Sequence record: PZ452602.1
Length of the DNA: 64,000 bases
Source of the DNA: a phage
Direction: 5' to 3' (one strand)
A model generated the notes under the pieces. That model saw only the letters and a program-made list of their open reading frames with translations. It had not been told where the DNA came from and did no database searches. Made by a program: the position numbers and the translations under genes. How positions within the stretch are numbered: position 1 is the stretch's first letter; each line of letters starts with the position of its first letter. This document shows, in pieces, positions 159 through 61,417 of this stretch.

Positions 159-815
159 ATGGCAGCACCTAGAATATCATTTTCGCCCTCTGATATTCTG
201 TTGGGTGTTCTAGATCGCTTGTTCAAAGATAACGCTACCGGGAAAGTTCTTGCTTCCCGGGTAGCTGTCGTAATTCTTTTATTTATGATGGCGATTGTTT
301 GGTATAGGGGAGATAGTTTCTTTGAGTACTATAAGCAATCAAAGTATGAAACATACAGTGAAATTATTGAAAAGGAAAGAAATGCACGCTTTGAATCTGT
401 CGCCCTGGAACAACTCCAGATAGTTCATATATCATCTGAGGCAGACTTTAGTGCGGTGTATTCTTTCCGCCCTAAAAACTTAAACTATTTTGTTGATATT
501 ATAGCATACGAAGGAAGATTACCTTCAACAATAACTGAAAAATCACTTGGAGGATATCCTGTTGATAAAACTATGGATGAATATACAGTTCATTTAAATG
601 GACGTCATTATTATTCCAACTCAAAATTTGCTTTTTTACCAACTAAAAAGCCTACTCCCGAAATAAACTACATGTACAGTTGTCCATATTTTAATTTGGA
701 TAATATCTATGCTGGAACGATAACCATGTACTGGTATAGAAATGATCATATAAGTAATGACCGCCTTGAATCAATATGTGCTCAGGCGGCCAGAATATTA
801 GGAAGGGCTAAATAA
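159..815 (+). CDS. t: holin T
   Basis: 218 aa; MAAPRISFSPSDIL... matches T4 holin length and sequence as recalled; strong SD aaggaggg 7 nt upstream. Confidence 0.95.
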   Translation: MAAPRISFSPSDILLGVLDRLFKDNATGKVLASRVAVVILLFMMAIVWYRGDSFFEYYKQSKYETYSEIIEKERNARFESVALEQLQIVHISSEADFSAVYSFRPKNLNYFVDIIAYEGRLPSTITEKSLGGYPVDKTMDEYTVHLNGRHYYSNSKFAFLPTKKPTPEINYMYSCPYFNLDNIYAGTITMYWYRNDHISNDRLESICAQAARILGRAK

Positions 816-3668: not shown

Positions 3669-3818
3669 TTACTGCATGACTGTGATAACTGTCATGATAA
3701 CACGTTGAATTCCGAACGCAAGAAGACCTCCTGCTACAGCTGGAACAACGCCTAAACCCGCTAGTAAAATGCTACCAGATACTAAGGCCGCACTCGTGAT
3801 ACCGATGAATGGACTCAT
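3669..3818 (-). CDS. small hydrophobic protein (49 aa), translationally coupled to gene 52
   Basis: Hand-read ORF MSPFIGITSAALVSGSILLAGLGVVPAVAGG...; ATG overlaps 52 stop (ATGA); below track threshold. Confidence 0.5.
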   Translation of the reverse strand: MSPFIGITSAALVSGSILLAGLGVVPAVAGGLLAFGIQRVIMTVITVMQ

Positions 3819-5143
3819 TTGATTTCCTCTAAATCTTTGGTGTATTCGGTAACTACATCAGTAGTTTTCCAATATTCGTTTTCTTCTTTTTTAGCTTTAG
3901 CTTCTTCAGCAAGTTTCTTCGCTTCATCGGAAGTCATATGAAAAATATTCATTCCAACTAGTTTATCAACATAAGAAGAATACATATCGATTTTCGAAAG
4001 TTCTTCGGTCAGTTCTTTACGAGTTTTACCCTGTACAACAATTTCACCTGAAATTACTTTCTTAATGAAATGTGCTTTGGCAAAGGCTAAACGAAAAGCT
4101 GATTCAGTTTCTTTGATTTTGTTATCAATTCGTTTTTGGACATAAGTTTTACGAACTTCAACAAAGTCTTTAATTAAATCAACTACGTTATCGTAAACTT
4201 GTAGTTTTCCTTTCTCATTAATAACCGTAATATTCTGGGAACGACGCTCAATCAACCCGAAGTCTTTCATAATTTTTGCATGGCGTTCTTCTTCATTATC
4301 GCTCAAAGAATATTCTTTACGGAATTTAACTTTGAATCCAAAACCATGCTCACCACAAGCATCATCCCATGTAATGAAGCCTTTATCTTCAAGTGGGTCT
4401 AAGATTTTACTCACATAAGTTTCACGATCATACTTATACGGAATCTCAGTGATATGCATTTGAGTTCGTGAAGTAAACTTGTATGTTCCACGAATTTCAT
4501 ATTGACCGTCAATCTCAACGACTTCACCACGAAATTCTGGGAATTCTACCTTCGGTTTAGTTACTTTCTTTCCTTGAAGAGCTTGTAATACAGCTTTCTT
4601 GACAGAAGAAACACTATGAGGAAGAATGTAAGTTGCATAACCAGTTGCAATACCGGAAACACCATTAAGAAGAACAGTAGGAATAATAGGCAAATAGAAA
4701 GCAGGCGGAATGTGTTCTTTATCTTGATGTACCGGAGCATATTCAGTATCTTTATATACGTTATAGAAATTTTTACTTACACGAGCAAAAATATAACGAC
4801 TTGCTGCTGCTTTTTGAACGGTACGAGAACCAAAGTTTCCTTGACCATCTAACAGAGGAAAGTTATTGTTCCAAGTGTTAGCCATCAAAGCACCTGCGTC
4901 TTGTGCAGAGTTTTCGCCATGGTGATATCCAAGGTCCGCTACACCACCTGCAATAGAAGCAAGTTTGTGAAACTTATCTTTATTTCCTCGTGCCAAATCA
5001 AGAGCTCGAGCAATAACAAATCGTTGAACTGGCTTAAATCCGTCAATCATATTTGGGATAGCACGATTTTCAACCGTGTACATAGCATAAGCCAATGCTT
5101 CATTATCAATGATACTTTTTAAATCGCGATTATTCAGTTGCAT
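3815..5143 (-). CDS. 52: DNA topoisomerase II medium subunit gp52 (GyrA-like)
   Basis: 442 aa, as recalled for T4 gp52; GyrA-like N-terminal sequence FKPVQRFVIARALDL. Confidence 0.95.
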   Translation of the reverse strand: MQLNNRDLKSIIDNEALAYAMYTVENRAIPNMIDGFKPVQRFVIARALDLARGNKDKFHKLASIAGGVADLGYHHGENSAQDAGALMANTWNNNFPLLDGQGNFGSRTVQKAAASRYIFARVSKNFYNVYKDTEYAPVHQDKEHIPPAFYLPIIPTVLLNGVSGIATGYATYILPHSVSSVKKAVLQALQGKKVTKPKVEFPEFRGEVVEIDGQYEIRGTYKFTSRTQMHITEIPYKYDRETYVSKILDPLEDKGFITWDDACGEHGFGFKVKFRKEYSLSDNEEERHAKIMKDFGLIERRSQNITVINEKGKLQVYDNVVDLIKDFVEVRKTYVQKRIDNKIKETESAFRLAFAKAHFIKKVISGEIVVQGKTRKELTEELSKIDMYSSYVDKLVGMNIFHMTSDEAKKLAEEAKAKKEENEYWKTTDVVTEYTKDLEEIK

Positions 5144-5147
5144 AAAT

Positions 5148-5288
5148 TTACCATACTAGTGAATGTAGTGCCATAATAACATCAGAAATGAAAAGCACGA
5201 CTTGAATTAATCCGAACATTATTCCGTAATATAACACTATCAATAAAATAACAAGGGTTAATGAATAGCCCAAGATTTTCTTAATCAT
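5148..5288 (-). CDS. small membrane protein (about 46 aa)
   Basis: Hand-read ORF MIKKILGYSLTLVILLIVLYYGIMFGLIQVV...; ATG overlaps ac stop; coordinates approximate. Confidence 0.4.
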   Translation of the reverse strand: MIKKILGYSLTLVILLIVLYYGIMFGLIQVVLFISDVIMALHSLVW

Positions 5289-5436
5289 TTTTTGAACCGA
5301 TACAAGCGAATAATGATAAAACTGCTAATGTCCCTTGAGCTGTTGACTGCAAAAATACTGAAGTTTCTCCAGTTATTATTGTTCCGGCGAATGAAAAGGA
5401 CCAACAGAAAAAGGCTATACCATTAACAAATTTCAT
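5281..5436 (-). CDS. ac: small membrane protein, Ac-like (acridine sensitivity) by size and position
   Basis: Hand-read 51-aa ORF MKFVNGIAFFCWSFSFAGTIITGE... with SD gaggaaaat; between stp and 52 as in T4. Confidence 0.45.
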   Translation of the reverse strand: MKFVNGIAFFCWSFSFAGTIITGETSVFLQSTAQGTLAVLSLFACIGSKND

Positions 5437-5446
5437 ATTTTCCTCA

Positions 5447-5524
5447 TTAGCGTCCGAAGACGCCTTTAGTTTTAAAATTATTACGATAGAACTGCATCAC
5501 ATGTTCGTTATGGAAATTACTCAT
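5447..5524 (-). CDS. stp: Stp peptide (activator of host PrrC anticodon nuclease / anti-restriction peptide)
   Basis: Hand-read 25-aa [28 protein letters not shown], near-identical to T4 Stp as recalled; ATG overlaps ndd stop. Confidence 0.8.
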
Positions 5525-5982
5525 TAATATGCCTGCAAAACGAATTTAAAGTTATCAGCCAACATACGGTTCATTTCTTCAAGTGTTTGATACTCAGAAT
5601 GATGATTACGAGTAAACGCTAAAGCTAACTGACCTTTACCAAATCCCGTCGTCAGAGGTTTCATCTTAGAAGCAGGCAGATAAAATACTGTGTATGCCAT
5701 ATTGTTATTTGCAATAGTACGCGCAAGCTGAGACCGGCGTTGACGAATATGACTTAGAACTGCGCTGAATCCTTGCTTAGAACGCTGATTACCAACATAA
5801 AATCGTGCAGACACACATGGATTACTAAATGGACGACCATCTAATTTGCTCACTAAAAAGTAAAATCCAGGTTTAGATAAAATGTCTTTATGTGGAGTTC
5901 CCAAAAACCACTCACCGCCCTTGATTGTACCAATAACAGTAGCGCCTGCATTATTCAGATCAGTAACAGTCATATATTTCAT
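5524..5982 (-). CDS. ndd: nucleoid disruption protein Ndd
   Basis: Track ORF 5524..6036 trimmed to internal Met ([13 protein letters not shown]...), giving about 152 aa as recalled for T4 Ndd. Confidence 0.85.
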
Positions 5983-6040: not shown

Positions 6041-6256
6041 TTAATCGTCGCAGTCGACGCTCAATTCCCAAAACTCTTCTACGGTATAAGTTTCAGTATC
6101 ATTTTCAATACAGAAACGTTCATTACTGTTATTTGCTAAAGTAGCGTTAACTGTCGGTTTCTCGCTAGTGCTCTTAAGAGGTGAAATACGAATTAACTGA
6201 TCACCGTTATCTAAACAGAAAATTTCACCAACTTTTACATCTTTAAAACTTTTCAT
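6041..6256 (-). CDS. hypothetical early protein
   Basis: 71-aa ORF between ndd and denB. Confidence 0.5.
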
Positions 6257-6371
6257 AATTCACCTCAAGGAGTATAAAATCCAAATGCAGTTGTTGACCA
6301 TCCCATCCAATATGGAAAATTTGCACCAATGTAAAACATAAGAATATAAAACCAAATGTTTAGTAAATTCA

Positions 6372-6568
6372 TTATTTTACACCATTCCAAATTGTTTCAA
6401 CCACAGATTTTAAACCATTTTGATGAATATCAATTCCGACTACTGTCATCAAATAGATTCCAACTACAACTGAACCCAAGGCAAAAATTAGCATGAAAAT
6501 GAATAAAGCCGGAAAAATATTATCGAAAAACCATTCAATAAATGTAAAAGCACTGCGTTTACGCTTCA
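6372..6568 (-). CDS. small membrane protein
   Basis: Track ORF trimmed to Met with SD (MKRKRSAFTFIEWFFDNIFPALFIFMLIF...); one predicted TM helix. Confidence 0.5.
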
Positions 6569-6576
6569 TATTTTCC

Positions 6577-6690
6577 TCACATAAATCCAAAGTAAACGTT
6601 TAATACATCAATCATTAAAACGATTGGGAATATACTCAAAACTATTAGTATTATAACTACATTCCATATAGCTTTAACAATCTTTTTCAT
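6577..6690 (-). CDS. small membrane protein (37 aa)
   Basis: Track ORF 6577..6825 runs through a promoter; real start likely MKKIVKAIWNVVIILIVL... after GGAGGA SD. Confidence 0.45.
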   Translation of the reverse strand: MKKIVKAIWNVVIILIVLSIFPIVLMIDVLNVYFGFM

Positions 6691-6752: not shown

Positions 6753-6933
6753 TTTTTAAAAATATTCGTAATAAATGTGAATACCAACTACTACCGCTGA
6801 AACCTGTGCAACCCACCACGCACAAGCAATAAGTACAGAATTCAAAATTTTCATAATAACCTCATTACAAAAGTAAATGTTAAACAAATTACTGGAATAC
6901 TAATTAACCAAACAAAACACCACCACAGTGAAC

Positions 6934-7197
6934 TCATAGTTCAATCTCAGCGATTTTCATTTCATTACTATTAATAGCCGCTTTAAGACTATCTGAAAGA
7001 ATTACATTCCAATGGTCATTCATATGACCATTAACTAAACGTGTAATTTCTTCAGGAGTTGAAAAATAAGGCGTATCAGACTCCCAATGCGATAGTCCCA
7101 AGCGAGTATAAATCATACCTTCATCATCGCTAGAATATTCAACTGACACAAACTCATCAGTTATTTTATGTTTAGCGTAATAAAATTTAAATTTCAT
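6934..7197 (-). CDS. hypothetical early protein
   Basis: 87-aa ORF with GGAGGAG SD, directly downstream of early promoter. Confidence 0.55.
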   Translation of the reverse strand: MKFKFYYAKHKITDEFVSVEYSSDDEGMIYTRLGLSHWESDTPYFSTPEEITRLVNGHMNDHWNVILSDSLKAAINSNEMKIAEIEL

Positions 7198-8101: not shown

Positions 8102-8130
8102 AAAACAAAAGGGCCGAAGCCCTTTATTTT
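8102..8130 (-). terminator. GGGC-UUCG-GCCC hairpin flanked by U/A runs (bidirectional terminator-like)
   Basis: + strand aaaacaaaaGGGCCGAAGCCCtttatttt; UUCG tetraloop on minus transcript. Confidence 0.6.
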
Positions 8131-8323: not shown

Positions 8324-8351
8324 AATTTTCCTTAGTTAAGGGCCGAAGCCC

Positions 8352-9290
8352 TTATTTAAATTGTTCAGTAACGTCTTCAACTACTTCGTATTGGCAGGTA
8401 CGCATTTTAGCGTCGTTGTAATCAATCGGAATTGATACTACATCGCGAGGATGAACTTTAACTTTTACAACTCGGCTGGTTGAACCACCGAAGTGACGAA
8501 TATAAGATTTAGAACACACATGCAGACCACGAGAACAAGTTTGTGTATCATCGTCATTCACACGAGTACGCGGCATTTTAACTACTTTACCAGGACTGTT
8601 ATCAAAGGTATTTGAGTGACAGTCAAAGTAATTGCTGCGAACTACTTTCCAAGCATAGAAGTAACCATCTTCTGTAATTTCAATATCGTTTGCTACCAAG
8701 AAATCAAAAAGTCGAGATACCGCTTTCTGGCTTGGGTTTTCCAGCAGATTTTCCAAGAACGGAAAATAAAATTCAAAGTTTTCGCCTTTTTCCATCGAAT
8801 CAAGAATACGATCAACCAAACCAGACCGCAATTCAATATTTTGATAGAATAAGCTTCCACCTTCAATTCGAACATCGCCGGAAATATATTTTTCAACAGC
8901 GCGACGAACATTAATTTTTTGTGCCGCTTCTTCCAGCTTATCCGCTACAAGCAGATTGAGAATTTCCTGGAAGTTTGAATGAGTATTAGGTGTTGCATTA
9001 TAAGTTACACCATCGACAGTAATCGAAATGAATTTTTTAGATGCATTCCAAATAATGTCAGATTTAGTAACTGGAGCAATAACTGCATCGCTATTAACTT
9101 TAACTGTAATATCACCGCTAATAGTAACTTTAGAGCGTTTAGCTTCTTCAGCATTTTTCAAAACACGACGGATTGTATCAACCGATACACCTTGCCAATC
9201 AGCCAATTCCTGCTGAGTATAATTACCGCTTGAATACAGTTTAACAATTTCAGCTTGTTCGTTTTTGGTCAGGCATTTAATATTGTACAT
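8352..9290 (-). CDS. rIIB: rIIB protein
   Basis: 312 aa, immediately downstream of rIIA; length as recalled for T4 rIIB. Confidence 0.93.
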   Translation of the reverse strand: MYNIKCLTKNEQAEIVKLYSSGNYTQQELADWQGVSVDTIRRVLKNAEEAKRSKVTISGDITVKVNSDAVIAPVTKSDIIWNASKKFISITVDGVTYNATPNTHSNFQEILNLLVADKLEEAAQKINVRRAVEKYISGDVRIEGGSLFYQNIELRSGLVDRILDSMEKGENFEFYFPFLENLLENPSQKAVSRLFDFLVANDIEITEDGYFYAWKVVRSNYFDCHSNTFDNSPGKVVKMPRTRVNDDDTQTCSRGLHVCSKSYIRHFGGSTSRVVKVKVHPRDVVSIPIDYNDAKMRTCQYEVVEDVTEQFK

Positions 9291-13616: not shown

Positions 13617-13640
13617 TAAAGGCCCGAAGGCCTTTTATTT
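13615..13640 (-). terminator. hairpin AAAGGCC-UUCG-GGCCUUU plus U-rich tail
   Basis: + strand aaaGGCCCGAAGGCCttttattt, downstream of lipoprotein ORF. Confidence 0.55.
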
Positions 13641-24421: not shown

Positions 24422-24448
24422 TGAAAAAAGGACTCCCGAAGGAGTCCT
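24422..24448 (-). terminator. rho-independent terminator downstream of soc (AGGACUCC-UUCG-GGAGUCCU + UUUUUU)
   Basis: 8-bp stem, UUCG loop, U6 tail on minus strand. Confidence 0.75.
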
Positions 24449-24453
24449 TGAAT

Positions 24454-39911: not shown

Positions 39912-39942
39912 AATTTCCTCATACAAGTTTTAGTGTAAATTA

Positions 39943-39959
39943 TAAAGGGCCGAAGCCCT
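39943..39959 (-). other. UUCG-tetraloop hairpin between genes 45 and 44
   Basis: + strand AGGGCCGAAGCCCT. Confidence 0.5.
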
Positions 39960-39962
39960 CTA

Positions 39963-40649
39963 TTAAAAATCGTGGGTAGAATCAGCTTCAAGAGCTACTA
40001 CATAATTCGCGTGTTCACCTTCAAATTTAGCAGCACCTTGTTTACCTTTTGCCCAGAGCAGAAGTTTATAATTTCCTGGTTGCATTTTCATATTTGCCAT
40101 ATTGATAATGAAATTAAATGTATTTTCACCATCATAATCACCAAGAGTCAAAGAATATTTAACACGGGTAAGAGCAGAATCTTCTACTTTATTAAAACCG
40201 TTAATTACGATTTTACCTTCTTTTACCGTGATAGCAATTGTATCAATCTGCAGACCACGAGATACACGCAACAGTTGTTGAAGGTCTTCAGCTTTAATTT
40301 CAGTAACAACAGATGCTACCGGGAATGGAATTGGTTTATTAGGAGCAACTACTGTACTCGGATCGGCTGCTGGCCAAAAAATTGTTGAGCGGGCATCAGC
40401 AATTTTAATATTTCCATCTTCTGACTGGGAAATTTCTGCATCATCATTAACTAGAGACAGAATACCAAGAAAACCGTTTAAATCGTAAATTGCTACATCA
40501 AAATCAATAACGTCAGAAATATTTGCTTCCGCATAAGTTGTACCATTAACTGCGCGAGTCATAATAAATTGACCGGATTTAAGCATAATACCGGAGTTAA
40601 TAGTAGCGAAATTTTTAAGCAGAGCAGTAGTATCTTTAGACAGTTTCAT
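39963..40649 (-). CDS. 45: sliding clamp gp45
   Basis: 228 aa as recalled for T4 gp45. Confidence 0.95.
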   Translation of the reverse strand: MKLSKDTTALLKNFATINSGIMLKSGQFIMTRAVNGTTYAEANISDVIDFDVAIYDLNGFLGILSLVNDDAEISQSEDGNIKIADARSTIFWPAADPSTVVAPNKPIPFPVASVVTEIKAEDLQQLLRVSRGLQIDTIAITVKEGKIVINGFNKVEDSALTRVKYSLTLGDYDGENTFNFIINMANMKMQPGNYKLLLWAKGKQGAAKFEGEHANYVVALEADSTHDF

Positions 40650-61389: not shown

Positions 61390-61415
61390 ATAAAAAAGGG
61401 AGCCCGAAGGCTCCC
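61390..61415 (-). terminator. rho-independent terminator (GGGAGCC-UUCG-GGCUCCC + U6)
   Basis: + strand aaaaaaGGGAGCCCGAAGGCTCCC; 3' of the NTase-motif gene. Confidence 0.75.
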
Positions 61416-61417
61416 TA

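Follow-up and report, generated by a model that had tools for sequence, protein, structure and literature searches.

The 26-residue Stp peptide of phage T4 is both required and sufficient for activation of the host's latent tRNA-Lys anticodon nuclease (PMC3014915, PMC1484252). It also relieves EcoprrI restriction, with modification unaffected (PMC3014915, PMC1484252), and acts as an inhibitor of the type IC enzyme EcoR124I, whereas EcoKI and EcoBI, both of type IA, are not inhibited (Penner et al. 1995, as reviewed in PMC3014915). Activation of the nuclease, PrrC, depends on hydrolysis of GTP, on DNA whose EcoprrI sites are unmodified, and probably also on dTTP; the cut tRNA is repaired by Pnk and Rnl1 (PMC3014915, PMC1484252). 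Loss-of-function mutations of T4 Stp are clustered at residues 4–14, while removal of 8 C-terminal codons lowers both activities only moderately (PMC3014915). The two activities mostly depend on the same residues, and the N-proximal 18 residues are almost absolutely conserved among T4 relatives (PMC3014915). The mechanism of the inhibition was still called unknown in a 2025 review (PMC12707154).

Here we consider a 64,000-nucleotide stretch of phage DNA (PZ452602.1), referred to below as the window. Its first 25 kb match many Tequatrovirus genomes at ~96% identity over 98–99% of the length, and because of this match the window is assigned, by sequence, to the T4 genus (Tequatrovirus) as a mosaic member. 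The 901-base stretch around the putative stp gene matched 567 phage records, nearly all of them from T4-like coliphages, with RB51 and RB68 as the best matches at 97.2%. The order of the genes is T4-like, 52 / 52.1 / ac-like / stp / ndd / ndd.1–ndd.6, as in T4T and RB51 (Table 1).

Table 1. Features of the stp region of the window, ordered by position.
Feature	Coordinates	Strand	Length and evidence
Gene 52, DNA topoisomerase II medium subunit	3815..5143	minus	442 aa; annotation of matched relatives
Gene 52.1	5148..5288	minus	46 aa; PF24129 DUF7396, 73 bits against a cutoff of 27
ac-like ORF, stp-proximal ac paralogue	5281..5436	minus	51 aa; 100% to RB51 'ac' product
Shine-Dalgarno GAGG of the ac-like gene	5442..5445	minus	5 nt before its ATG, just past the hairpin; read from sequence
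stp	5447..5524	minus	ATG start, 25 codons and stop; RB51-type allele (F17, no Q26)
C(UUCG)G tetraloop hairpin	5449..5464	minus	GGCGUC-UUCG-GACGCU; stp codons 21–25 and stop
ndd (nucleoid disruption protein)	5524..5982	minus	152 aa from MKYM...; PF06591 Phage_T4_Ndd, 315 bits; 96.7% to T4T Ndd
ndd.1	6041..6256	minus	71 aa; 97–99% to T4T and RB51 ndd.1; phrog_2183
ndd.2	6265..6372	minus	35 aa; 100% to RB51 ndd.2
ndd.2a / ndd.3	6372..6569	minus	65 aa; 100% to RB51 ndd.2a
ndd.4	6577..6690	minus	37 aa; 100% to RB51 ndd.4
ndd.5	6756..6854	minus	32 aa; 100% to T4T ndd.5
ndd.6	6851..6937	minus	28 aa; 100% to T4T ndd.6

A preliminary description of the window, made from its letters, had named the 25-aa peptide as essentially T4 Stp, and all comparisons support this identity. 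The translation equals the annotated RB51 Stp in 25 of 25 residues and the T4T Stp in 24 of 25, residues 1–16 and 18–25 being unchanged. In the alignment to the 26-aa T4 Stp, which had been suggested as a check, the peptide carries the substitution L17F, and codon 26 is changed from CAG to TAA, so that Q26 is lost. The peptide scores 68 bits on the Pfam family PF08133 ("Anticodon nuclease activator"), whose gathering cutoff is 25 (E = 4.4e-19), the match spanning profile positions 1–25 of 26, and it also matches phrog_6763 (E = 1.4e-19). A tblastn search with the peptide matched 805 phage records; 30 of these carry it unchanged, and in 438 a single residue differs. NCBIfam contains no model for Stp, the ac-like protein, or gp52.1, and no solved structure of Stp or of a Stp complex was matched in the PDB.

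The position of the gene leads to the same assignment. In T4T, the equivalent gene between ndd and ac is stp, annotated as 'activator of host PrrC lysyl-tRNA endonuclease', and RB51 is annotated likewise; the exact allele of the window bears this product name in RB51 and RB68 (ACP31181.1), and the label in the curated BASEL record is 'type IC restriction inhibitor Stp'. Hence, the locus has what characterizes Stp in T-even phages: a peptide close to 26 residues in length whose N-proximal 18 are conserved (positions 4–14 are identical to T4 Stp), encoded directly after ndd and before ac and gene 52. The functions named in the preliminary description, inhibition of EcoprrI and triggering of PrrC, are those published for T4 Stp (PMC3014915, PMC1484252, PMC12707154) and would be carried over to the window by analogy. 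We conclude that 5447..5524 is very probably the stp gene of a T4-like (Tequatrovirus) coliphage, acting as T4 Stp does. Knowledge of stp goes back to the 1980s, and the allele is already described; the gene is nothing new and has little discovery value.

The gene is absent from the list of open reading frames supplied with the window. The lister applies a default cutoff of 60 aa, and we relisted the frames with a minimum of 20 aa. This returned the 25-aa peptide, as well as the 51-aa and 46-aa ORFs reported to follow it, both on the minus strand and 3' of stp. All three had been said to be missing because each is shorter than 60 aa, and their lengths bear this out. Four of the ndd.x ORFs, namely ndd.2, ndd.4, ndd.5, and ndd.6, are below 60 aa as well.

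The reported junction with ndd is also present. The plus strand reads CATTA at 5522–5526, that is, TAATG on the minus strand, and the ndd stop TAA (5526–5524) and the stp ATG (5524–5522) have one base in common. Upstream of the stp ATG, a weak AGG can be read 7 nt away. As the overlap is accompanied by only this weak AGG, translation of stp probably begins by re-initiation of ribosomes terminating on ndd, and we infer that the two genes are translationally coupled. In a promoter scan, sigma-70-like sites were no commoner than in shuffles, and hence we claim no promoter.

To characterize the wider family, we ran a degenerate DNA pattern for HVMQ[FL]YR on IMG/VR, which yielded 44 loci. The in-frame peptides, together with those of K1ind2 and P817, were compared and fell into three groups: T4-likes, Kagunavirus siphophages, and Drexlerviridae. 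Over the first 14 codons, the Kagunavirus genes differ from the window by 3–6 synonymous and no nonsynonymous changes, the Drexlerviridae genes with the NSTNC tail by 7–9 synonymous and 2 nonsynonymous changes, and the outlier P817 of the Drexlerviridae (L004) by 6 synonymous and 4 nonsynonymous changes. Since the changes in these lineages are almost all synonymous, the codon pattern indicates that the stp frame is translated and that its N-terminal part is the constrained one. Residues S2, N6, H8, V9, M10, Q11, Y13, R14, and K18 are invariant across the family; most of them lie in residues 4–14, where the loss-of-function mutations cluster. Position 17 is occupied by L, F, or I, and F17 is therefore, as judged from the family alignment, a conservative natural variant. 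Both F17 with Q26 (L006) and L17 without Q26 are found among the IMG/VR contigs, so that the two differences from T4 Stp are independent polymorphisms.

Several members of the family deserve mention on their own. K1ind2, a Kagunavirus with a 43-kb siphophage genome, encodes an unannotated 25-aa Stp between the endolysin gene and a 49-aa ORF (L003 2501..2578). The Stp peptides of K1ind2 and of CP088689.1 (L059 2501..2578) are identical to the window peptide at 22–23 of 25 residues. The latter record is filed as an Escherichia coli plasmid of 44 kb with the layout lysozyme / Stp / NinH / terminase; we considered it as a plasmid-borne Stp and rejected this, since lysozyme, NinH, and terminase in the Kagunavirus arrangement mark a phage genome. 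Among Drexlerviridae (T1-like phages), Stp-like peptides that share the N-terminal 14 residues but end in another tail are encoded in P817 (L004 2483..2575), Stevie (L049 3001..3081), and N5822 (L051 3001..3096), and the IMG/VR loci of this type are L008–L013, L024, L026–L028, L033, L041, L042, L045, and L047. The Drexlerviridae stp-like genes lie 0.5–1.2 kb from a polynucleotide kinase gene. Just one Drexlerviridae record, Stevie, mentions Stp, as a note. The siphophage homologs cannot be regarded as new, as all of those tested exceed the existing PF08133 cutoff and the Stevie record, from 2014, already notes Stp.

Some T4-like loci depart from the usual form of the gene. The Stp of T2 (L057, PV648364.1) has a different tail, without the hairpin described below. 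Two 170.5-kb T4-like contigs from IMG/VR (L034 and L043) have CGG in place of the stp ATG, S in place of F4, and no ndd upstream; from their sequences, they are probably stp-null by nature, and PrrC would then not be triggered. In a 4-kb contig (L022, IMG/VR 3300023038_000081), Stp is fused in frame to the 49-aa ORF that follows it, and the product has 74 aa (…KGVFGGMKITDIEAF…). This could be either a sequencing frameshift or a real fusion.

The 3' codons of stp coincide with an RNA hairpin. Its predicted folding energy is -9.3 kcal/mol (z = -2.76), and its core, GGCGTCTTCGGACGC, is exact in all 13 T4-like loci compared. A predicted ARNOLD terminator is annotated at the same place in phage G4498, and our terminator scan found the site terminator-like on the plus strand. 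The hairpin is absent from the Kagunavirus gene, which codes the same GVFG tail with other codons, and from the Drexlerviridae and T2 genes, which carry other tails. On this comparison the hairpin is an addition specific to T4-likes and, because Kagunavirus codes GVFG without it, the tail is not conserved merely for the sake of the hairpin.

Hairpins of the C(UUCG)G type are a familiar feature of T4 early transcripts. In total, and with the one inside stp included, the window contains 14 of them with stems of 5–9 pairs (at least 5 were required), 13 being on the minus strand, which is the early-transcript strand here. Examples are found at 8108..8125, 8337..8354, 13618..13635, 24428..24449, 39942..39963, and 61397..61416.

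Two alternatives would deny the frame the status of a gene. The surrounding 3.5 kb contain 51 ORFs of at least 20 aa, so a short ORF could arise there by chance in AT-rich phage DNA. However, the Pfam match at E = 4.4e-19, the 805 phage records, the conserved position, and the annotated gene in the closest relatives refute this explanation and leave it practically no probability. It is also extremely unlikely that the conserved sequence is mainly an RNA element, with the UUCG hairpin between ndd and ac terminating transcription or stabilising the mRNA, and the frame being incidental or untranslated. The hairpin inside the last codons is indeed stable, exact in 13 T4-like loci, and predicted to be a terminator elsewhere, but it spans the last 5 codons only. 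The first 14 codons are kept as amino acids through many synonymous changes in phages that have no hairpin (Kagunavirus, Drexlerviridae, T2), and this codon pattern already contradicts a purely RNA role; moreover, T4 genetics and peptide add-back show the peptide to be the active agent (PMC3014915, PMC1484252).

The other alternatives accept the gene and question its function. The RB51-type allele, with L17F and one residue less, might be a functionally shifted variant formed in an arms race, for instance one that still inhibits type IC restriction but triggers PrrC less, or one that targets a different type IC enzyme. Residue 17 does fall within the N-proximal 18-residue functional region, called almost absolutely conserved, and this would speak against a T4-like function. 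In addition, the allele is in the minority (30 identical records versus 438 with one mismatch), selection to lose PrrC activation is plausible given that Stp is double-edged, and the start codon of stp is apparently lost in the T4-like contigs L034 and L043. Still, L, F, and I are all seen at position 17 in otherwise conserved members, so the change is conservative; the loss-of-function mutations lie at residues 4–14, and a C-terminal truncation by 8 residues is tolerated. Since the two activities rely mostly on the same residues, they are unlikely to be split by a single conservative change. We consider such a shift very unlikely. A wider version, also unlikely in our view, combines an arms-race allele, in which restriction inhibition and PrrC triggering would be balanced differently, with a 14-residue N-terminal module that would be a horizontally exchanged anti-type-IC cassette of T-even phages, Kagunavirus, and Drexlerviridae, provided with lineage-specific tails.

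The preferred reading is that the peptide functions as T4 Stp does. By analogy with T4, we expect with high confidence that the F17, Q26-less allele keeps both activities, because residues 4–14 are intact, position 17 varies between L, F, and I, and the missing residue belongs to the dispensable tail. The 25-residue basic peptide would be made from the early ndd / stp / ac / 52.1 / 52 transcript, and its N-terminal ~18 residues would bind the host type IC restriction complex (EcoprrI, EcoR124I), blocking DNA cleavage but not modification. In hosts with prrC in the type IC locus, the same binding would release latent PrrC, which would cut tRNA-Lys 5' of the wobble base. Survival of the phage would then be owed to polynucleotide kinase and RNA ligase 1, whose genes are expected in another part of the genome. 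When T4T PseT and RnlA were used as tblastn queries on the window, the best hit had E = 1.4, so that neither gene was found there. The T4 map puts both genes outside the window, with pnk and rnlA about 27–30 kb before gene 52, and the negative result therefore does not bear on whether the phage has them.

Downstream of stp, the ac-like ORF starts 10 nt after the stp stop codon. Its 51-aa product is 40% identical to T4 Ac over 40 aa (E = 1.8e-5) and is less hydrophobic; both proteins belong to phrog_2501, and neither matched a Pfam family. Phages Aplg8 (L053 905..1229) and FriedrichZschokke (L056 807..1131) carry two tandem ac copies, ~40% identical to each other. The 51-aa protein matches the stp-proximal copy (78% to the first copy of Aplg8), while T4 Ac matches the distal one. 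Therefore, by its sequence, the 51-aa ORF is a paralogue rather than an ortholog of T4 ac, and 'Ac-like', the wording of the preliminary description, is right. T4 keeps the distal type alone, whereas the window and RB51 keep the stp-proximal type alone. In the curated BASEL record, the stp-proximal copy is labelled 'hypothetical protein'.

In T2, codon 11 of ac is an in-frame TAA in all T2-type records (L057 ~400..550, PV648364.1, and seven others), and to judge from these records T2 is naturally ac-defective. We considered this stop codon, present in a 'T2 escape mutant' record, as a link to escape from defence, and rejected it, as all eight T2-type records, including the wild type, are identical.

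The ORF of gene 52.1 overlaps the ac-like gene by 8 nt and ends 4 nt before gene 52. Its product is 87–98% identical to gp52.1 of T4T and RB51 and is strongly hydrophobic along nearly the whole length (GRAVY 1.85). The ndd.1–ndd.6 proteins are 89–100% identical to those of T4T, or 99–100% to those of RB51 where RB51 has a counterpart. Ndd itself contains an indel hotspot around residues 45–55, where T4T has KLGGPFSNPCV and RB51 has EFDGSCV; the window differs there too. In three records (OL631483.1, OP870145.1, and OP856590.1), ndd is annotated as 'naphthalene 1,2-dioxygenase', which may stem from confusion over the gene symbol.

To see how stp fares in existing annotation, we took a spread of 37 T4-like records having the peptide at 92% identity or more in tblastn. 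Stp is named in only 4 of the 37; in 10 the site holds an unnamed feature, 2 lack annotation altogether, and the remaining 21 have no stp gene call, the match touching nothing but ndd, at times under a wrong name. This means that length cutoffs hide a real counter-defence gene, which is a known limitation and not a discovery. The preliminary description had held that the defence and counter-defence content of the window is under-called. This is true for Stp, which falls below the cutoff, but does not extend to Ac and gp52.1, which have no known role in defence or counter-defence. An inventory of such genes in T4-like phages needs a homology-based layer for micro-ORFs, and the necessary Pfam and PHROG models exist.

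Among known systems, the closest is that of RB51 and RB68, with the same 25-aa Stp, the same TAATG junction, the same downstream ac-like protein, and the same gene order; outside the peptide, RB51 differs by a 5-residue indel in Ndd and by one residue in gp52.1. With T4, the window has in common the position of stp between ndd and ac and the hairpin-forming 3' codons. Unlike the window, T4 has a Stp that is one residue longer, with L17, and the other ac paralogue downstream. T4 Stp is the one with measured activities, to which the window allele is compared by sequence. The Stp-like peptides of siphophages (Kagunavirus K1ind2; Drexlerviridae Stevie, P817, and TLS-like contigs) have in common with the window the N-terminal motif MS[NS][FW]... 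and K18. However, they are encoded in unrelated genomes with their own Shine-Dalgarno sequences, without ndd, and without the hairpin. Their tails also differ: in Drexlerviridae the tail is IKKILNSTNC (consensus [QH]RIKK[IM][LI]NSTNC) as opposed to LKTKGVFGR, and in Kagunavirus it is [TA]KGVFGK.

Ocr of T7 and ArdA of plasmids are DNA mimics. Together with plasmid ArdB, which has a novel fold unlike that of a DNA mimic, they lead to the same outcome as Stp, a type I restriction enzyme blocked early in infection (PMC12707154). By contrast, Ocr and ArdA/ArdB are larger proteins, whereas Stp is a basic peptide of 25–26 residues, specific for type IC enzymes and with no sequence relationship to them.
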